Below are positions 243 through 9,618 of a stretch of DNA of 9,618 bases, one piece after another. The position numbers and the translations under genes were made by a program. A model generated the notes under the pieces. The model had not been told where the DNA came from. It worked only from the letters and a program-made list of their open reading frames with translations, and made no database searches. This DNA comes from a virus (lineage: Duplodnaviria; Heunggongvirae; Uroviricota; Caudoviricetes), in the IMG/VR virus record IMGVR_UViG_2734482579_000011, one strand, 5' to 3'. Position 1 is the first letter of the stretch; each line of letters begins with the position of its first letter.

Positions 243-1325
243 TCATTTTCTCTGGCTGATCTTTACCGGATAACCATCCCGAAGATCAATTAAGTGCTCC
301 GGTTCAGAAGCAAACCATGCATAAGATCCCCACGCCAATTCTGGTATTGCCTTTTTAAAAGGCAGAGCACTTCTGTCCATAAATGCCGTAAGGAATGCAA
401 GATTTTTCTCGCTGAACCCAGCGTCAATAGCCAAATGAGTGAGAGTAACTTTTCGTTCCCTGTTTATAGGCCCATCTGTCGCAACTACTTCAGTGAAAAC
501 TACAAGCATGTCCGAACCCGTTCGGTCCTCTCCCAAATCAATCAAAATAATATCTGGAAGTGCTTTTGAGGCATCAATATTCAGCCCCAATGCTTTTGCC
601 AATACATCATCCTGAGCAACAACTTTATTCCCGGATTCAGACAACCAGAGCACAGTTGGATTCTTAAGAAAATTAGGAGCAAAAACTTCGATGACGGCCT
701 TAGCTATTGTACTTGACGGGCCCGGAGCTAAAGTTCTCTTCTCTCCATTTGGGAAAGTGACGACTACGGCATCAGCAGCAATCACTGCCCCTGATTTCAA
801 TAAACGCAACCTAGCAAGAGCGGCTTTGTTCAAATGATTTTCTTGCCAGGAACTTATTGCACTCAGCAGCGAATCTCCTTCAAGCCCGGCATCAAAGAGT
901 GCTGCAAAAGAGCGATTCAAACTGTAACGAGGACGAGAGGATGTGGTGGGTATACCTTTACGCTCAACAATTGCATTGCAAGGTATTAGGCCATTTTTTA
1001 TAGTTTCATCACGTATTGGCTCACGCGTATTTTCCGCATACCATGCATCAGCAGGCCTTATCTTTTGTTTAGAGAAAGTCATCTTTACCCAGCTTTCTCT
1101 GGACGCATCATCAGTAAGAGCAGCCTGCGAATCTCCCATACTTACAACCTGGCTGGGCCTTATCCATCGCCCCAGCCCCTCAACCGCACCAGCATAAAAC
1201 ATGACAAAAATTGTTTTTGCAGCTATTTCCCGAATTAAATATCCACGATTCTCAGTCCCTTCAGGGAAAATTAATTGTAATCTTTCCCGGATAACATTCA
1301 ATGGGGGAACAACAGGCAGATTCAT
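243..1325 (-). CDS. Putative type II restriction endonuclease (360 aa), partner of the upstream methyltransferase; possibly BsuBI/PstI-like, family unverified
   Basis: ATG at 1325..1323 overlaps the methyltransferase TGA (1324..1322) as ATGA, so the two are co-directional and translationally coupled. Contains LPDIILIDLGED...VVFTEVV, a possible degenerate PD-(D/E)XK core. Lower GC than the phage genes. Family is a recollection-based guess. Confidence 0.6.
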   Translation of the reverse strand: MNLPVVPPLNVIRERLQLIFPEGTENRGYLIREIAAKTIFVMFYAGAVEGLGRWIRPSQVVSMGDSQAALTDDASRESWVKMTFSKQKIRPADAWYAENTREPIRDETIKNGLIPCNAIVERKGIPTTSSRPRYSLNRSFAALFDAGLEGDSLLSAISSWQENHLNKAALARLRLLKSGAVIAADAVVVTFPNGEKRTLAPGPSSTIAKAVIEVFAPNFLKNPTVLWLSESGNKVVAQDDVLAKALGLNIDASKALPDIILIDLGEDRTGSDMLVVFTEVVATDGPINRERKVTLTHLAIDAGFSEKNLAFLTAFMDRSALPFKKAIPELAWGSYAWFASEPEHLIDLRDGYPVKISQRK

Positions 1326-3154
1326 GCAATCATCACTCCATAGAAACCAGCGATAGTTCTCTCAATAATCCGTCTGTGGACGCCAGCATCAATTAACGAT
1401 TGAATCTCCATCACCTGCTCCAGAGAAGGCAACGGGATTGAATTCAATTCATAGGCCGAAACAGCAACACTTCCGCTTATACACCTGAACGCCCGATCGA
1501 CAACATGCGAATTAAGTAGCATATCAATAACATCAGGGCGAACCGCAGAGAACAATCCGTTTGAATATACAATATTAATATGGTTTTCAACTACTACGCC
1601 ACCAGTTTCATCTATAAATCCCTGAGGTAAAATTGCCGCTAAAATCCTTCTGTCCTGTTCCTTCGATGTTGTCCGCTGAACAAGCACACATTCAGATTTT
1701 GTCACAAGGAAACCCTGTTGTGGGGTTATATCGATATAGGGAACATGATTTTTTCTGTCTGCACTAAAACGAAAACCAGCTGAAGTTATTGATTCCGCCC
1801 AGACTAATGGGTAGCTATTTTTTCCTTTCGTCGTACGCAACTGCGACTTAAATCGATTCCAGACTAACTGACCTGTAGAGACTGAGTATCCCAGATCAGC
1901 TAAACGCGTAGACATCTGTTTTAATACATTAAGAAAACAGGCATCATCTTTAACGCGTGGCAAAAGCCACGTTGCTCCACCTTTTTCTATATCAACATTA
2001 CCTATTTTCTCAATTTTTGCTTTGTTCAACCCCTTAGGGACAAGTGAGGATACCTGGGCCCGAACTTTATGTTCTCCCGCCTTGAATGCTGTCAACATTG
2101 TTTCCTGGAGAACATCGTCAAAGACCCCATCCCTGTCAGTGACGAAATCAAGGGCATACGGAGTAGTTTTTTCGGTCAAAAGGGTTCGCAGCGCGGTGAA
2201 ATACTGCCCACCAAGAAAAGAAGTTGGCGTAAGAAATGCAATAACTCCTGTTTTCTCTTTAACCATGCGAACAGCTAAGTCGGTGAACAATCCATATAGA
2301 TTTGCATGACCAAATAACGAACGAGAATATTTTTCTCTCGTTTTAATATCGAGAGTGACACGTCCGTAAGGCGGATTCCCTACCACAAGATCATAACCAG
2401 AAAATTTATCTTGCTGAAGCGCATCAGCAACAATAATTGTATCTTCAGGCAATCTACGTTTTACCTTTACACATAGTGGCATTAGTACAGATTCGAGCAA
2501 TACCAAACTCATCCAAGCCGCAAATGGATCGATCTCTATCCCCTTTAAACGACGACTGATTCTCCTCAACATCCATTCAGGGGAAGACCCCTTGTCTTTT
2601 TTTAACATTCGAATGGCTACTGGTGCCAAAAATGCACCGCCACCACACGCAGGATCAATAACCGATGCATGAGAAAAATCAACACCAGACTTTTCAGCCA
2701 GGTCCAAGAGACGCGCTACCAAAGGTGGGGGGGTATAGTAAGCCCCCAATTCCGAACGGTAAGCGGATGGCAGCATTACCGTATAAATTGACCCAATCAG
2801 ATATCCAGCGTCCTCCGCCGGAAATTGAGCAATAAGCTCACCTGTTCGTTCAGCGAGCTCGCGTGCATCACATGGAATGTCTTCTATGTAAACAGTGTGC
2901 GGTACTGCCCTCATTTTAATGCTGCTTTTTTGCTTTTTTGCAAGGGTATCCCAATATGCAGCTACGATGCTGAAGCAGTATGAGCGGGCATGCATCAACC
3001 TTGACTGCCCGGTTTTGTAATTGCCCGCATAACCTTTGGCCATGGCTTTACAAGTTTGATATCTTTCCAGATTAGAAAACTCATTATCTGTAAAAAAATC
3101 AAAATGTTGCACATTCATAATGTAAAATCCTAATGTATCAAACATGCGGGCCAT
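1322..3154 (-). CDS. Gamma-class N6-adenine DNA methyltransferase (610 aa), Eco57I/TaqI-like catalytic domain with a C-terminal target-recognition region
   Basis: Motif order in the translation: GAYYTPPPLVARLL (motif X), VIDPACGGGAFLAPV (motif I, AdoMet binding), VVGNPPYGR (motif IV, NPPY). About 330 aa follow as a presumptive TRD. Alternative in-frame ATGs at 3145 and 3118; the start is uncertain. Confidence 0.9.
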   Translation of the reverse strand: MARMFDTLGFYIMNVQHFDFFTDNEFSNLERYQTCKAMAKGYAGNYKTGQSRLMHARSYCFSIVAAYWDTLAKKQKSSIKMRAVPHTVYIEDIPCDARELAERTGELIAQFPAEDAGYLIGSIYTVMLPSAYRSELGAYYTPPPLVARLLDLAEKSGVDFSHASVIDPACGGGAFLAPVAIRMLKKDKGSSPEWMLRRISRRLKGIEIDPFAAWMSLVLLESVLMPLCVKVKRRLPEDTIIVADALQQDKFSGYDLVVGNPPYGRVTLDIKTREKYSRSLFGHANLYGLFTDLAVRMVKEKTGVIAFLTPTSFLGGQYFTALRTLLTEKTTPYALDFVTDRDGVFDDVLQETMLTAFKAGEHKVRAQVSSLVPKGLNKAKIEKIGNVDIEKGGATWLLPRVKDDACFLNVLKQMSTRLADLGYSVSTGQLVWNRFKSQLRTTKGKNSYPLVWAESITSAGFRFSADRKNHVPYIDITPQQGFLVTKSECVLVQRTTSKEQDRRILAAILPQGFIDETGGVVVENHINIVYSNGLFSAVRPDVIDMLLNSHVVDRAFRCISGSVAVSAYELNSIPLPSLEQVMEIQSLIDAGVHRRIIERTIAGFYGVMIA

Positions 3155-4967: not shown

Positions 4968-5509
4968 TTACTTCACAACTCCCGGAAAGCTGACATTTGA
5001 ACGCCAGCTATCCCAGTTAAACGTCACCCACCGACAACCGTTCATGGTCATGCGGTCCATAATCCTCTCACCAAGAAGCGTGCTCATTGCGGCATGATTC
5101 AGGTTTGTTAACATCCCGACACTGCACAGTGATGCTGTCCGGCGATCAATTATCTGGTGCAATACCACCTGCTCGTTTTTCGTCTCCCGCTGAATGCCTA
5201 TTTCATCCAGGACCAGCAAATCAACCCCGCAAAGCTCCTGTAAAAATTTTTCACCGGATTTGCCGTTGTCGTAGCTGTCATGCAACACGCTCATGACATC
5301 AGACTCGGTGACGATAATCACGCTGCGCCCCTTCGCCATCAGCCGGTTACCCATCGCCGCTGCAAGGTGATTTTTCCCGGTGCCGGTTTTACCGCTGAAC
5401 ACAAAATTCGTGCACCCGGTCATCAGTTCGTCAGCTATGGATTTGGCCTGGCTCAGCGCGTATTTTTGCCCGTCGTTCTGCACCTGATAATTCGCAAACG
5501 AGCATTTGC
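4968..5509 (-). CDS. DnaC-like helicase loader / IstB-like AAA+ ATPase (phage replication protein), 5' end lost in the N gap
   Basis: Walker A FVFSGKTGTGKNHLAAA and Walker B DLLVLDEIG in the translation; the ORF is open up to the N run at 5510, so the true start lies in or beyond the gap. Confidence 0.85.
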
Positions 5510-5751
5510 NNNNNNNNNNNNNNNNNNNNNNNNNNNNNNNNNNNNNNNNNNNNNNNNNNNNNNNNNNNNNNNNNNNNNNNNNNNNNNNNNNNNNNNNNNN
5601 NNNNNNNNNNNNNNNNNNNNNNNNNNNNNNNNNNNNNNNNNNNNNNNNNNNNNNNNNNNNNNNNNNNNNNNNNNNNNNNNNNNNNNNNNNNNNNNNNNNN
5701 NNNNNNNNNNNNNNNNNNNNNNNNNNNNNNNNNNNNNNNNNNNNNNNNNNN
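5510..5751. other. Run of 242 N (assembly gap or masked sequence)
   Basis: Directly visible. It interrupts the junction between the initiator and the DnaC-like gene; true length and content unknown. Confidence 0.99.
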
Positions 5752-6739
5752 TTACCGGGAGCAACCAGGGGTTTTCAAAATTCCGGTCCGGCCCAAAAAA
5801 CGTCGTCGCTCGCTGAACAAATTCCGTTCCCGCTTTCCCGGTCGCCGCCAGGTATCTCGCGTAACGCCTCACACCATCCAGCATGGTCTCTGGTGGCACC
5901 CCCTCGCGCAATCTGGCCTTCCAGGCACTGAATGCGGATTTCTTCGGGTTTGCCCCGGCACGCAACGGGTATTCCCGCCAGACCTGTTCGAACACATCCG
6001 GATAATCCACTCGTCCCACAGGCTGCCCGGTGTTTTCCGGGGCTACCCGATCGGCTTCCCGCTGAATGGCGGAATCGGCTTCAGGCTGCTGCAGTTGGAG
6101 TGATTGCTCCGGCCTTGCGGTCATCACCTGCTGCACAGCGCCCGAATCGGCTTTCAGCGCATACGCTGAATCGGCTTCCGGTGTCGAGCCTGCTGGCTGA
6201 CCAGGATTGACGGTCTGAACATCCCCTGCCTGGTTCGTGGCGTTTTTTACGCCATGGACCATAGTGTTTTGATCTTCTTTATCTGTATCTTTATCTGTAT
6301 CTGTCGTGACTCGTCGTGACATGTGCGTGACATTTCGTGACGCGCCGTGACAATCGCCATTTTGTTCCCGCTTTCTTTCCCTCTCTCGCTGCGCCCTCTT
6401 GCGCTCTGCAGGAGATTTTGCGGTTTGCGAAATATTGCCGTTGTCCTCTTTAAGCACCTGGCGTTTTTCCCATCCAGTGATTAAATCACCATCAAGTACC
6501 CGCCCCTGCATCGTCTGCAAAATTGAATCAATTACCTCTTCTGTCACGTCGAGCGCACTTGCCAAATCTTCTGTCGTGACATCAATGTGACCTCGCGTGA
6601 CATTTCGTGACGCGCTCACCAGGAGGTGGATATACACTGCCATCACTGTTGCAATTGGCTGCCCTGACACCCTGGCAATTGTTCGCCACTTAGGGTCATT
6701 TGGCATGTCATGCCATAATCTGAGCCAGGCGTTAGCCAT
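5752..6739 (-). CDS. Phage replication initiation / replisome-organiser protein (O-like; YdaU-type context), 3' end lost in the N gap
   Basis: ATG at 6739..6737 with SD-like AGAGGTGA upstream (GTG alternative at 6745). Directly upstream of the DnaC-like gene, as in lambdoid replication modules. Acidic/TDKD linker and internal iterons. The track ORF's tail beyond the gap (to 5453) is a frame artefact. Confidence 0.7.
6277..6304. repeat. Tandem 12-bp repeat (CTTTATCTGTAT x2 plus partial) in an AT-rich stretch immediately beside the iterons
   Basis: Directly visible; encodes the TDKDTDKE acidic linker on the minus strand. It lies 3' of the iterons in the gene's direction, like the AT-rich region of lambda ori. 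Confidence 0.6.
6305..6351. repeat. Iteron-like array: five CGTGAC hexamers at 10-11 bp phasing inside the initiator gene (candidate phage ori)
   Basis: CGTGAC begins at 6305, 6315, 6326, 6336 and 6346. On the coding strand the hexamers fall in different reading frames, so this is a DNA-level periodicity and not a peptide repeat. Confidence 0.55.
6543..6615. repeat. Second iteron-like cluster (GTCACG/CGTGAC units at about 10 bp phasing) containing an exact 21-bp copy of part of the first array
   Basis: GTCACG at 6543; CGTGAC at 6575, 6596 and 6606; TGTGAC at 6586. The 21-mer GCGTGACATTTCGTGACGCGC occurs at 6325..6345 and again at 6595..6615. Confidence 0.5.
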
Positions 6740-6810
6740 ACTCACCTCTTCTGATACCGAATCTTTTTACTCACGAGTTGCCGGGAGCGATTCGATATGG
6801 CTATTGTCAG

Positions 6811-7236
6811 TCAATGTACTGCCACAGCATTTCCTGCCGGGCCACCACGGTTCATCTGATTGAAACCGGCGATTGCCACTGCGACAAAATCATCAGCGTC
6901 TCTCACCAGTCGTTCATGCGTCTCCACCAGTTCCCGAAAATAAGCTGAACTGTGGCTGCGCATTCGAGCCACCAGCGGAGGTGGCATTGCCCTTTCGATC
7001 GCAGGTAACAACGCCTGAATTTTTTCAACAGCGTCAGGGGTGTCTTTATCCAGCCAACGGAAAATCTTTTGGGTGTTGAGATAAAGCGTGTTGTGCTTGC
7101 TGTCGTTATGCAGAACCGGAAACGTCATTCCCAGTTCGAAATAAACCCTGGTTATTTCAGCTGCCGGAACTTTTTCACCGTCCGGATGCGCCCAGGCTTT
7201 CATCGCCATGCGGATGTGTTCATGCTTGATTTTCAT
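6811..7236 (-). CDS. ydaT: YdaT-like protein (141 aa), reported as a CII-like regulator in Rac/CP-933P-type prophages
   Basis: ATG at 7236..7234 overlaps the upstream gene's TGA (ATGA). Size and position immediately after the Cro-like gene match the ydaS-ydaT arrangement; homology is recollection-based. Confidence 0.55.
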   Translation of the reverse strand: MKIKHEHIRMAMKAWAHPDGEKVPAAEITRVYFELGMTFPVLHNDSKHNTLYLNTQKIFRWLDKDTPDAVEKIQALLPAIERAMPPPLVARMRSHSSAYFRELVETHERLVRDADDFVAVAIAGFNQMNRGGPAGNAVAVH

Positions 7237-7496
7237 GAATCAACCCCCGCCGATGGTTGTGTGTTAGCCTGAAACTCAGCAGGCAAGCCGTCAGTTGGGT
7301 TGGGGTAGGTTTTACTGTCAATCTCATGTGGGGTCACCACCCATCCCGTTGCTTCACACCAACGTAATATTTTTTCTCCTGTAAGTTTTGCACGCCCCGT
7401 TATAACGTGGCTGACCATCCCTTGGGATGCGCCAACAATCTCAGCAAATGAACTCTGGGTTATATGAAAATGATGCAAATATTCTCCAAGATTCAT
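7233..7496 (-). CDS. ydaS: Cro-like / YdaS-family HTH DNA-binding protein (87 aa)
   Basis: HTH-like segment ITQSSFAEIVGASQGMVSHVITGRAKLTGEKILRWCEATG; divergent from the repressor gene across an operator-rich intergenic region. Start taken as ATG at 7496 (the track ORF begins at a TTG at 7523). Confidence 0.7.
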   Translation of the reverse strand: MNLGEYLHHFHITQSSFAEIVGASQGMVSHVITGRAKLTGEKILRWCEATGWVVTPHEIDSKTYPNPTDGLPAEFQANTQPSAGVDS

Positions 7497-7532
7497 AATC
7501 CGCCCTATGTGATGTGTTACCAATGCATAATT

Positions 7533-7595
7533 AATAGCACTGTTATTTTTAAAAGTAAATAGTGATACTATTTCAAAGTGATTAGCAATCTTATT
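7533..7595. promoter_or_regulatory. OR-like operator cluster with divergent promoters between the cro-like and repressor genes
   Basis: Three 15-bp imperfect palindromes about 24 bp apart: AATAGCACTGTTATT (7533..7547), AATAGTGATACTATT (7558..7572), and weaker ATTAGCAATCTTATT (7581..7595). Candidate minus-strand promoter (-35 at 7554..7559, -10 at 7531..7536) and plus-strand promoter (-35 TTCAAA 7572..7577, -10 TAGAAT 7595..7600) overlap them. Confidence 0.55.
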
Positions 7596-7607
7596 AGAAT
7601 TGGATGT

Positions 7608-8108
7608 ATGAAAAGAAAATCATTGTCAGACACCGACCTCAACGCCGCCAGAAGACTGAAAGAAATCTGGATGGCAAAGAAATCTCAGTTGGGATTGACT
7701 CAGGAACGTGCGGCGGAAATTATGGGGTTTTCAACACAAGGGGCGGTAAGTCACTACCTAAATGGTCAAACCCCACTAAACCTTGAGGCTGTTCTAAAGT
7801 TTGCTGGCTTACTGAAAGTTCCCCCTGAGTCAATCAGGCCAGACATGGTAGATTTGCTGCAAATTGCAAGGATGTATTGTCGAGAACCACAGCAAGATAA
7901 CATAGTCGCATTACCAGCAGACACAGAACAAACAGAGGATGAACTACCGTTTGCCGTAGAGCCGATGGAACGAGATTTAATCCATACGTTCAGAGCTTTT
8001 CCGAAAGAAGATCAAGAACACATGCTTCAGGAGATGAAAGATAAAAAAGAATCAATGGATCGTACGGTTGCGCGGTGGTTAGCTGCACAAAAAGGCCGTC
8101 GCGCCTAA
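7608..8108 (+). CDS. paaR: CI-like HTH repressor without a peptidase domain (166 aa); probable PaaR-type regulator of the downstream toxin-antitoxin pair and candidate prophage immunity repressor
   Basis: HTH segment LGLTQERAAEIMGFSTQGAVSHYLNGQTP; ATG at 7608 (the track ORF starts at a GTG at 7578). First gene of a three-gene plus-strand operon; symbol assigned by recollection of the CP-933P paaR2-paaA2-parE2 locus. Confidence 0.7.
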   Translation: MKRKSLSDTDLNAARRLKEIWMAKKSQLGLTQERAAEIMGFSTQGAVSHYLNGQTPLNLEAVLKFAGLLKVPPESIRPDMVDLLQIARMYCREPQQDNIVALPADTEQTEDELPFAVEPMERDLIHTFRAFPKEDQEHMLQEMKDKKESMDRTVARWLAAQKGRRA

Positions 8109-8127
8109 ATCAGAGGAGATATGTAAA

Positions 8128-8322
8128 ATGAGTACAGTCCTTTCCCCAATGGTTTCAGAATTTGAGACAGTTGAGCAAGAAAATAGTTACAACGAATGGC
8201 TGCGGGCCAAAGTAGCAGCAAGCCTCGCGGATCCCCGCCCGGCGATTCCGCATGATGAGGTAATGGCGGAAATGGAACAAATTATTGCCCAAATTGCTGC
8301 TGCAACTCACAGAGGTGAATAA
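8128..8322 (+). CDS. paaA: Small antitoxin (64 aa) of a ParE-family toxin-antitoxin pair, PaaA-like
   Basis: SD AGGAGA 9 nt upstream; its TAA stop overlaps the toxin ATG (TAATG); 19-bp gap after the repressor gene implies co-transcription. Confidence 0.7.
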   Translation: MSTVLSPMVSEFETVEQENSYNEWLRAKVAASLADPRPAIPHDEVMAEMEQIIAQIAAATHRGE

Positions 8323-8612
8323 TGTTACCCGTTTTATGGCTACCATCTGCTCGTGATGATTTGCGCCAGATCGTAGCCTACATAGCTAAAGAAAATCCCG
8401 CGGCAGCACGCAGAATGAAAATTCGAATTGAAACATCCGTTTTGCCGCTCACAGAGCATCCTTACCTGTATCCTCCAAGCGAGCGAGTTCTTGGTCTTCG
8501 TGAAATTGTAACTCATCCTAACTACATCATCCTTTACCGAGTAACAGCATCAAGCATAGAAGTAGTAAATATTGTGCATTCTCGAAGACAGTATCCAGGC
8601 AAAAACAGTTAA
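8322..8612 (+). CDS. parE: ParE/RelE-superfamily toxin (96 aa)
   Basis: C-terminal signature ...NYIILYRVTASSIEVVNIVHSRRQ typical of ParE/RelE toxins; overlaps the antitoxin stop by 1 nt; an intrinsic terminator follows. Confidence 0.8.
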   Translation: MLPVLWLPSARDDLRQIVAYIAKENPAAARRMKIRIETSVLPLTEHPYLYPPSERVLGLREIVTHPNYIILYRVTASSIEVVNIVHSRRQYPGKNS

Positions 8613-8628
8613 TTATTCCCGCCGACAG

Positions 8629-8654
8629 AACCACCTTAGGGTGGTTTTTTCTTG
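8629..8654 (+). terminator. Rho-independent terminator of the repressor-antitoxin-toxin operon
   Basis: Perfect 7-bp stem AACCACC / GGTGGTT with a TTAG loop, followed by TTTTTTCTT. Confidence 0.8.
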
Positions 8655-8668
8655 CCCCAACAAAAAAC

Positions 8669-8711
8669 AATAGCGATGCTATTTACATCAAAAAAAAATA
8701 ATGATGCTATT
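8669..8711. promoter_or_regulatory. OL-like operator pair carrying the same palindrome consensus as the OR cluster; probable early-left promoter region
   Basis: AATAGCGATGCTATT (8669..8683) and AATAATGATGCTATT (8697..8711), 28 bp centre to centre, matching the OR sites (consensus roughly AATAGY-N3-RCTATT). They sit just after the operon terminator and upstream of the next plus-strand genes. Confidence 0.55.
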
Positions 8712-8892
8712 GTTTCAGGCGTCAACCCACCCCGCCCCACAGAATGCAGGGCAATACTTCGAGTTACCAGACAGTGGTCAGGGGTTAAGTAGCCAGCCCG
8801 AGGCGTAAGAACATGACGGCAGGGTTCAATCTTTAACTATGCAGCAGGTTTTTTGTTCCGCCACCCCGGCGTTAAGGGGAAATGAGGTCAGC

Positions 8893-9045
8893 ATGGATAC
8901 TATCGATCTTGGCAACAACGAATCTCTGGTGTGCGGCGTGTTCCCTAACCAGGATGGAACGTTTACCGCCATGACGTATACCAAAAGCAAAACGTTTAAA
9001 ACCGAATCTGGCGCGCGTTGCTGGTTAGCCAGAAACACTGACTGA
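8893..9045 (+). CDS. Small hypothetical early-left protein (50 aa), possibly of the YdfA/YdaF small-protein type (unverified)
   Basis: ATG at 8893 with GAGG 5 nt upstream; the track ORF's longer form from 8839 has no SD. Confidence 0.45.
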   Translation: MDTIDLGNNESLVCGVFPNQDGTFTAMTYTKSKTFKTESGARCWLARNTD

Positions 9046-9056
9046 TGAGGCTGACG

Positions 9057-9422
9057 ATGGAATTTAAAGATTTACCGTCTGATGTACAGAAAACAGCAGC
9101 TCATACATTGCATTCTGTGCTGCGAGAAATCGGGAAAGATATTGCAAGCGAGCCAGCAAAAGATCTGGCCCGGAAAATCAAGACCGCTTTCGTTGAGCTT
9201 TATAATGTTGGCACTGACTCTGAAACTGTCGAGACCAAGACCGTAAGTTCACCAATATTCTCACTTGAGCCAAGCGTATTATCAGGTGAAATATGCACCG
9301 AGATTTCCAGCGAACTGCTTCCGGTAATACGAGAAGCAATTCGCCGTCGCGGTTTGGATGGAAGTTATGATCATGACGTTCTGCAAGTTCTCAGGACAAT
9401 GGTGACTTCACTGGGGATTTGA
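9057..9422 (+). CDS. Hypothetical early-left protein (121 aa)
   Basis: ATG at 9057 with GAGG 7 nt upstream; the alternative ATG at 9045 overlaps the previous stop but lacks an SD. Confidence 0.55.
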   Translation: MEFKDLPSDVQKTAAHTLHSVLREIGKDIASEPAKDLARKIKTAFVELYNVGTDSETVETKTVSSPIFSLEPSVLSGEICTEISSELLPVIREAIRRRGLDGSYDHDVLQVLRTMVTSLGI

Positions 9423-9554
9423 TCCCTGCGTCCTCTAAGCTTTTGATATAGCGGTCCTCCAAGAAGCGGTAAATTTTGTCGAAATCATCTTTTCCCTCTG
9501 GTTTATTCAGAGGATTACAGGACCCGTAAGTAGCGGCATACATTTCAACCGTTT

Positions 9555-9618
9555 GGTAATGACTCCAACTTATTGATAGTGTTTTATGTTCAGATAATGC
9601 CCGATGACTTTGTCATGC
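9555..9618 (-). mobile_element. IS1 insertion sequence, partial (right terminal inverted repeat and the 3' end of insB; body continues beyond the window end)
   Basis: 9555..9618 is the reverse complement of the IS1 right end GCATGACAAAGTCATCGGGCATTATCTGAACATAAAACACTATCAATAAGTTGGAGTCATTACC. The terminal IR starts at 9555; orientation is the same as the left copy. Confidence 0.92.
9570..9618 (-). CDS. insB: IS1 InsB, C-terminal fragment (stop at 9572..9570, 5' end beyond the window)
   Basis: Minus-strand translation ends ...KVIGHYLNIKHYQ then stop, the known InsB C-terminus. Confidence 0.8.
   Translation of the reverse strand, partial: HDKVIGHYLNIKHYQ

Follow-up and report, generated by a model that had tools for sequence, protein, structure and literature searches.

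We analyzed a stretch of 9618 bases (hereafter the window) from a caudovirus, IMG/VR virus record IMGVR_UViG_2734482579_000011, with a focus on the segment that carries a phage repressor gene, a ParE-type toxin–antitoxin (TA) gene pair and several copies of a 15-bp palindrome. This segment is laid out in the order ydaT, cro analogue, right operator region (OR), repressor, paaA, parE, terminator, left operator region with its early promoter (OL/PL) and leader (Table 1), an order that it shares with the prophage CP-933P/Sp12 of Escherichia coli O157:H7. The immunity region of CP-933P was the subject of the experimental study of Jurenas et al. (2021; PMC8630535). An earlier reading of the window (hereafter the original prediction) had proposed that the same palindrome flanks the repressor–TA operon on both sides in the manner of OR and OL of phage lambda, with the ParE-family TA pair in the position of rexAB.

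The palindrome, AATAGY-N3-RCTATT, was scored as the pattern AATAGYNNNRCTATT, with 200 dinucleotide shuffles of the window as the background. We found two perfect matches (7558–7572 and 8669–8683; expected 0.00), and allowing up to one mismatch raised the count to four, with the addition of 7533–7547 and 8697–8711, versus an expectation of 0.06; no shuffle reached four. The proposed repetition of the palindrome on both sides of the repressor–TA operon is thus well founded. Beyond these four, no further site with up to two mismatches is present across the 9618 bases. In a control for local composition, the AT-rich intergenic segments alone were shuffled 50,000 times: the fraction of shuffles that produced a perfect site was 6e-5 (OL) and 4e-5 (OR), and none (0/50,000) produced a pair of sites with at most one mismatch each. 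By our own estimate from simple base-frequency arithmetic, chance alone would place about one perfect site in a 5-Mb E. coli genome.

Two complete E. coli genomes match the region 7497–8720 at 99% identity, and about 70 further E. coli genomes, O104:H4 strains among them, match it from end to end at 78–79%. We fetched seven loci with a repressor of the same type (L001, L003 and L005–L009; repressors 80–99% identical), across which the helix-turn-helix (HTH) segment of the repressor is conserved. In all seven the sites stand at the same five places, with the place of the weakest one, OR3, occupied by either ATTAGCAATCTTATT or ATTAATAATCTTATT. Among the 20 distinct site sequences, positions 1, 3, 4 and 12–15 are invariant and the center takes all four bases; judged from sequence, an operator bound by a dimer is expected to show just such invariant outer bases around a free center. 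Across about 42 kb of DNA of the seven relatives, sites with up to one mismatch are confined to OR and OL, and 11 kb from two heteroimmune loci (L002 and L004) contain none. The second of these, L004, encodes exactly the ParE2 of PDB 5cw7 and is therefore the published CP-933P locus; L002 is the second PaaR-type locus of EDL933/ATCC 43894, which is probably the paaR1–paaA1–parE1 system of Hallez et al. 2010. Within the 99% relatives, OR2 and OL2 are the same in sequence; compared with them (7558–7572 versus 6359–6373 of L001), OR2 of the window has T...A in place of C...G at positions 6 and 10, with the dyad symmetry kept.

A further set of E. coli loci shares only window positions 7981–8596, that is, the last ~44 codons of the repressor gene together with paaA and parE, with the N-terminal domain of the repressor, the cro gene, OR, the terminator and OL all being different. 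The junctions are mosaic: homology to the PaaR1- and PaaR2-type loci, which are heteroimmune, begins at about codon 125 of the repressor and ends just before the parE stop. Among 5,426 complete E. coli genomes, 842 matched a query containing this shared part, which was covered in every match fetched or listed. The loci fall into immunity types with distinct operators: the AATAG type of the window; a AACAGTTTTT type, to which the second EDL933 locus and its relatives belong (L002, L130 and L134) and whose OR/OL motif is AAAAACTGT/ACAGTTTTT; and the published GTTTAGT type of CP-933P itself (L004 and L131). The best OR-versus-OL 15-mer match is 13–15 of 15 within a type and 11–13 between types, which makes the matrix block-diagonal. 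Thus, in at least three immunity types, the shared OR/OL motif changes in step with the repressor's DNA-binding domain. From these alignments, the C-terminal domain of the repressor, paaA and parE make up one conserved cassette, around which the DNA-binding domain and both operator sets are exchanged together. Directly observed, then, are the sites as such, the fact that they are not randomly placed, their conservation and this covariation. One PaaR1-type locus, L134 (NZ_CP047378.1, locus 1956–2340), has undergone a natural TA deletion that left the first 22 antitoxin codons and the last toxin codons, with the repressor, OR and OL intact. As this locus lacks the TA genes yet retains OR and OL, the sites would seem to serve the repressor rather than the TA complex.

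Table 1. Features of the window, with predicted elements marked as such.
Feature	Position	Strand	Remarks
BsuBI/PstI-family endonuclease	243–1325	−	PADLOC REase_II, E 3e-128
Eco57I/N6-type methyltransferase	1322–3154	−	PADLOC MTase_II, E 2e-300
YdaT-family gene, functional CII analogue	6811–7236	−	Pfam YdaT_toxin E 5e-9; PDB 8bt1 E 3e-70
YdaT box TTGATTTTCATGAATCAA	7226–7243		At the cro/ydaT junction; perfect, with no second perfect copy in the window
Cro-like HTH gene, 87 aa	7233–7496	−	HTH_3 E 4e-4, below the Pfam cut-off
Predicted PR	7531–7559	−	−35 TTTACT (7559–7554), 17-bp spacer, −10 TATTAA (7536–7531); read from sequence
OR1-like operator AATAGCACTGTTATT	7533–7547		One mismatch; overlaps PR −10; same place in seven relatives
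OR2-like operator AATAGTGATACTATT	7558–7572		Perfect; overlaps PR −35, abuts PRM −35; same place in relatives
Predicted PRM	7572–7600	+	TTCAAA, 17-bp spacer, TAGAAT; found by promoter scan
OR3-like weak operator ATTAGCAATCTTATT	7581–7595		Three mismatches; in the PRM spacer, touches PRM −10
Repressor, 166 aa	7608–8108	+	Lambda-CI-type N-terminal HTH and PaaR-type C-terminal domain
PaaA2-family antitoxin, 64 aa	8128–8322	+	Pfam PaaA2 (PF21217) E 3e-23; PDB 3zbe E 1.4e-23
ParE-family toxin, 96 aa	8322–8612	+	Pfam ParE_toxin (PF05016) E 2e-17; PDB 5cw7 ParE2 E 7e-37
Intrinsic terminator of the repressor–antitoxin–toxin operon	8627–8650	+	Fold of −15.1 kcal/mol (z −3.35) ahead of a T-run
OL2-like operator AATAGCGATGCTATT	8669–8683		Perfect; overlaps PL −35; identical to OR2 of L001 and L005
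Predicted PL	8682–8713	+	TTTACA (8682–8687), 20-bp spacer, TATTGT (8708–8713)
OL1-like operator AATAATGATGCTATT	8697–8711		One mismatch; overlaps PL −10; kept in relatives
Early-left leader	8720–8892	+	
ydfA-like DUF1391 gene	8893–9045	+	First gene downstream of PL; DUF1391 E 3e-28

The first gene of the operon codes for the regulator with the conserved PaaR C-terminal segment. Its N-terminal ~90 residues match the N-terminal domain of lambda CI (E 3e-9), a match that takes in helix 1 as well as the basic N-terminal arm, and the HTH_3/HTH_31 type is the only domain that Pfam recovers in it (HTH_3, E 8e-9). Residues 123–166 are 52% identical to PaaR2 of CP-933P (E 5e-15), and residues 103–166 (64 residues) are 56% identical to the regulator of the second EDL933 locus; the N-terminal domains of the repressor and PaaR2 do not align. 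Judged by these comparisons, the repressor is a chimera in which a lambda CI-like DNA-binding domain is joined to a PaaR C-terminal segment. The window has neither a PaaR2-like DNA-binding domain nor the GTTTAGTAA operators that go with it, and its immunity specificity is a different one. No S24 peptidase domain, and with it no LexA/S24-type autocleavable C-terminus, was found by Pfam in the 166-aa protein, so RecA-mediated cleavage is not expected. PaaR2 is likewise reported to lack a peptidase motif (PMC8630535). None of the sequenced phages in the phage collection carries the repressor of the window, the best match being lambda CI at 31% identity (tblastn). A start of the repressor at GTG 7578 (176 aa) was rejected because its relatives are annotated from the ATG equivalent to 7608, which coincides with the start predicted for PRM.

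All three OR sites fall in the interval that separates the cro-like gene (up to 7496) from the repressor gene (from 7608), such that the divergent promoters PR and PRM are split by about three tandem palindromes, as is typical of lambda. Of the three phased OR sites originally claimed for this interval, the two strong ones and the spacing (25 and 23 bp, center to center) hold, and the third is a weak site with three mismatches. The center of OR2 lies at about −42/−43 relative to the predicted PRM start, and lambda CI bound at OR2 activates PRM from about that same position. The half-sites double as parts of the promoter hexamers, with ctaTTTACa providing the −35 and gcTATTgt the −10 element, at PR and PL alike; the layout of PR also matches that of PL in the relatives. 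Since the ATG of the repressor is located 8 nt past the −10 element of PRM and lacks a Shine–Dalgarno sequence, its mRNA is probably leaderless, by analogy with lambda cI and paaR2. For paaR2, leaderless translation has been demonstrated (PMC8630535).

On the other side of the operon, the operator recurs at a second early promoter, the predicted PL being overlapped by both OL sites. In line with the original placement of these sites just after the terminator of the operon, a genuine terminator precedes the first of them at 8669. The further claim that the two OL sites are phased is upheld as to the presence of both sites; their centers are 28 bp apart in the window and hence not strictly phased, compared to 25 bp in the seven relatives and 24 bp in the viral contig L145. 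The latter is an IMG/VR contig with a 99.4% identical repressor and is the sole true relative among 15 matches to a PL-specific pattern in IMG/VR. A consensus scan also called a leftward promoter over OL1 (TTGACG-16-CATTAT, 8725–8698, − strand), which would read antisense into parE. We rejected it as probably due to chance: the region would be expected to hold 3.1 promoter-like sites anyway. Its −35 element is present in L001 and L005 and absent from the group-B relatives.

Downstream of PL, the leader 8720–8892 shows 90% mean column identity across heteroimmune loci with unrelated operators and repressors. We found no support for the leader (8720–8895) being a structured RNA of the nut or put kind: the single-sequence fold gave z = +0.81, the alignment fold displayed almost no covariation, the sequences being 90% identical, and Rfam yielded nothing credible in the whole window at the gathering threshold or in 8600–9100 by E-value. 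The DUF1391 gene that follows (8893–9045) carries the annotation ydfA in the relatives of the window, in which ydfA-ydfB-ydfC-dicB are found downstream of OL.

On the other side of OR, the Cro-like gene is annotated as coding for an HTH protein in 98–99% identical relatives and, by its position, its product may bind the same palindromes as the repressor. The adjacent YdaT regulator is 77% identical to the YdaT of CP-933P, whose structure is PDB 8bt1, and a TTGATT-N6-AATCAA box lies at the junction of the two genes. In CP-933P, this box was mapped and footprinted at the end of ydaS, at the ydaS/ydaT junction (PMC9986795). By analogy, the box in the window marks a predicted PRE-like element reading towards the repressor operon.

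The two remaining genes of the operon encode the TA pair, for which Pfam recovered the PaaA2 and ParE families only. The antitoxin is 75% identical to PaaA2 of CP-933P and is devoid of a DNA-binding domain, its Pfam match being limited to the 33-residue PaaA2 model, which corresponds to the toxin-binding segment. The toxin is 67% identical to ParE2, and its ATG overlaps the antitoxin stop codon (TAATG) in an arrangement for translational coupling. Among the phages of the phage collection, only phage Evi carries a ParE2-like gene. By analogy with the CP-933P pair, which is addictive and whose locus stabilizes plasmids (PMC8630535), the pair in the window most likely functions as an addiction module stabilizing the immunity region. 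Such a module can evidently be lost, as in L134.

The experimental work on CP-933P provides the closest point of comparison. There, PaaR2 and YdaS both footprint the OR region, with opposite preferences among the operators; PaaR2 at low levels activates PRM and represses PR; PL933P, with OL1–3 downstream of parE2, is repressed ~100-fold by PaaR2 and by YdaS; a PRE-like promoter is activated by YdaT; the locus is bistable; and PaaR2 octamerizes (PMC8630535). According to Prolic-Kalinsek et al. (2023; PMC9986795), paaA2-parE2 stand in for rexA/rexB, and PaaR2 for CI. In addition to the gene order, the window shares with CP-933P the perfect YdaT box at the same place, the leaderless-type repressor start, operators common to OR and OL, and a PL that repeats the PR hexamers. 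It differs in the lambda-CI-like N-terminus of its repressor and in its operator, a clean 15-bp palindrome as against the GTTTAGTAA-type repeats of CP-933P. The similarities to lambda itself include the three OR sites, with spacings of 25 and 23 bp compared to 24 and 23 bp in lambda, the middle one of which is placed at about −42 from PRM; the probably leaderless repressor mRNA; the CI-homologous N-terminal domain of the repressor; the recurrence of the operator at PL just past the terminator of the repressor operon; and the two accessory genes cotranscribed with the repressor. Unlike in lambda, the repressor lacks the S24 peptidase domain, the 15-bp operators are of a different sequence, OR and OL are separated by ~1.1 kb rather than ~2.4 kb, a ParE TA pair takes the place of RexAB as the accessory genes, the role of CII is taken by the POU-type protein YdaT, and no N/nut system was identified in the window.

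Two other loci display parts of the same design. The second PaaR-type locus of EDL933/ATCC 43894 (L002) has the same architecture, with one motif shared by OR and OL, and its cassette of C-terminal domain, paaA and parE shows ~75% DNA identity over window positions 7981–8596; its HTH domain is different and its operators are of the AAAAACTGT...ACAGTTTTT kind, making it a heteroimmune sibling. The Qin dicA/dicC locus with its ydfABC-dicF-dicB operon, reportedly characterized by Bejar, Bouche and co-workers in the 1980s, is similar in that a CI-like repressor gene is followed by a repressor-controlled promoter driving ydfA (DUF1391) and dicB-type division inhibitors. Qin is not known to have a TA pair interposed between its repressor gene and its ydfA promoter, and the window differs in having no dicB, which is missing because IS1 truncates the region.

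Taken together, we consider it highly probable (about 0.85) that the window contains the immunity region of a defective, IS1-truncated lambdoid prophage of the CP-933P/Sp12 class, in which the palindromes are the OR and OL operators of the repressor. The lambda-like layout with the ParE-family TA pair in the rexAB position, as first suggested by the original prediction, agrees with the site statistics, the seven relatives, the covariation and the CP-933P publications alike. As to whether the repressor binds, the promoters fire, a loop forms and what the TA pair does, we extrapolate from the experiments on the CP-933P homolog. On this basis, a dimer of the 166-aa repressor would bind the 15-bp palindromes, as might, from its position, the 87-aa Cro-like protein. 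OR1 would cover the −10 element of PR; OR2 would cover its −35 element and be placed for the activation of PRM; and the weak OR3, over the core of PRM, would mediate negative autoregulation or repression by Cro. PRM and a YdaT-dependent PRE-like start (7226–7243) would transcribe repressor-paaA-parE as one operon up to the terminator. The OL sites would cover the −35 and −10 elements of a rightward PL-like promoter driving the ydfA early-left genes, and, since the same operator is present at PR and PL, one repressor would shut both early promoters. The oligomerizing PaaR-type domain could further bridge OR and OL, and the TA pair in the rexAB slot would stabilize the immunity region through addiction.

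Several observations weigh against this interpretation. The consensus promoter scan called neither PR nor PL, and the −10 element predicted for PR, TATTAA, is without the canonical final T, which is why PR was missed by the scan. With its three mismatches, the OR3 site 7581–7595 (ATTAGCAATCTTATT) is at chance level by sequence (15 such sites found versus 10.8 expected), and it is credible only because it is well placed and is conserved in the relatives. The 87-aa Cro-like protein has no similarity to YdaS of CP-933P detectable by BLASTP. Only two OL sites are visible, compared to the three reported for CP-933P, and the PL spacer is 20 bp long in the window versus 17 bp in the seven relatives and 16 bp in L145. 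Finally, the prophage is degraded, with an IS1 end at ~9555, so the circuit may be partly non-functional. The long spacer (8688–8707) results from a homopolymer, A9 in the window (8690–8698), which is A6 in L001 and L005 and A5 in L145, and it leaves PL probably weak or dead in the window copy. Going by sequence, PL is thus probably crippled there, unless A9 is an assembly error. The change in the length of the A-run could reflect slippage tuning or killing PL, or else a sequencing error.

These points lend some substance to a reading, possible though doubtful in our estimate, under which the OL sites of the window are a relic or a looping partner only: the lengthening of the A-run by 3 bp would have inactivated PL, and the sites would at most help OR via a 1.1-kb loop. 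Besides the spacer, it would account for the lack of a + strand promoter call at the position of PL and would fit the IS1 truncation of the early-left region and the octamerization and looping published for the homolog. It is countered by the intactness of both OL sites (a perfect copy and a one-mismatch copy), by the prospect of A9 being a homopolymer error of sequencing or assembly, and by the sequence being compatible with a weak long-spacer promoter. A second, improbable reading concerns the TA pair, which was originally suggested to act in Rex-like superinfection exclusion or abortive infection; the trigger would be a phage disturbing PRM transcription or antitoxin stability. The pair does occupy the position of rexAB and is cotranscribed with the repressor as rexAB is (PMC9986795), and the degradation of PaaA2 in the homolog depends on ClpAP/ClpXP (PMC8630535), as a trigger of this kind requires. 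The suggestion nevertheless found no support: PADLOC returned no match for the repressor, PaaA or ParE; no RexA/RexB homolog or other recognized defense protein was seen among these three operon proteins, which are unrelated to RexA and RexB; no phage-challenge data were found in the literature searched; and the homolog data show addiction and stabilization. Specifically, ParE2 activity went undetected in both states of the CP-933P switch, and its authors favor addiction or genome stabilization (PMC8630535).

The palindromes could also be thought of as classical type II TA operators bound by the antitoxin–toxin complex, given that most such operons are autoregulated via palindromes near their promoter. 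This is very unlikely in the present case, as the antitoxin matches only the toxin-binding PaaA2 segment and PaaA2 is reported to lack any DNA-binding motif (PMC8630535), the motif varies with the N-terminal domain of the repressor while the TA cassette stays conserved, and L134 kept both operator regions after losing its TA genes. The notion that the palindromes arose merely by chance in intergenic DNA rich in A and T is effectively refuted. The motif is indeed AT-rich, and the third OR site is, as noted above, at chance level. Moreover, a search of a 596-Gb genome collection with the two-site pattern AATARYN3RBTATT-N8-13-AATARYN3RBTATT was set aside, having returned more than 120 chance matches in unrelated AT-rich genomes, above what we had estimated for chance, with no enterobacterial prophage among the 80 loci listed. 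Nonetheless, close to zero sites are expected even with the local composition, the sites are held in position in the seven relatives though the surrounding DNA has diverged to ~79% identity, and OR and OL covary across the immunity types.

A more speculative extension, to which we attach little probability, would cast the cassette of PaaR C-terminal domain, paaA and parE (~7981–8596) as a portable guard of the switch, joinable to any HTH/operator set, with the TA pair doubling as a Rex-like device. The antitoxin would be made only from repressor-controlled promoters, so that shutdown of PRM and PRE or deletion of the region would free ParE. If so, the triggers would be the Cro or antirepressor of a superinfecting phage, or recombinational replacement of the immunity region, and the operators shared by OR and OL would make the toxin an abortive or exclusion device in addition to an addiction module. 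Likewise, the variable A-run (A5, A6 or A9) could be a slippage-prone knob tuning or silencing toxic early-left genes.

Further features lie elsewhere in the window. A type II restriction–modification pair lies on the − strand at 243–3154, inside the prophage, and looks like prophage-borne defense cargo downstream of the replication genes. A run of 242 Ns (5510–5751) is located around the overlap of a replication-initiator-like open reading frame (ORF; 5453–6745) and a DnaC-like ATPase ORF (4968–5483). On the early-left side, a 125-aa ORF after ydfA (9045–9422) has no Pfam match. The DNA at ~8855–9554 matches hypothetical genes of phage mEp460_ev081 at 97.7% identity and is unlike ydfB-ydfC of the closest E. 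coli relatives, which marks another mosaic junction. The window ends in IS1 terminal sequence (9552–9618), 98–100% identical to IS1 in many records, which truncates the early-left region.

As the architecture and its regulation were published between 2021 and 2023, the current understanding of this class of immunity region is unchanged: the combination of OR/OL with a TA pair is already known from the CP-933P sister, of which the window is an uncharacterized heteroimmune sibling. What is new are the CI–PaaR chimeric repressor, the different operator sequence and the A9-stretched PL spacer. The locus is the second instance, and a cleaner one, of a bistable switch in the style of lambda that carries a ParE TA pair, with a textbook 15-bp palindrome and a DNA-binding domain like that of lambda CI. 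It should be useful for annotating prophage immunity types, including those of the O104:H4 prophages, and as a tractable system for operator and looping studies.

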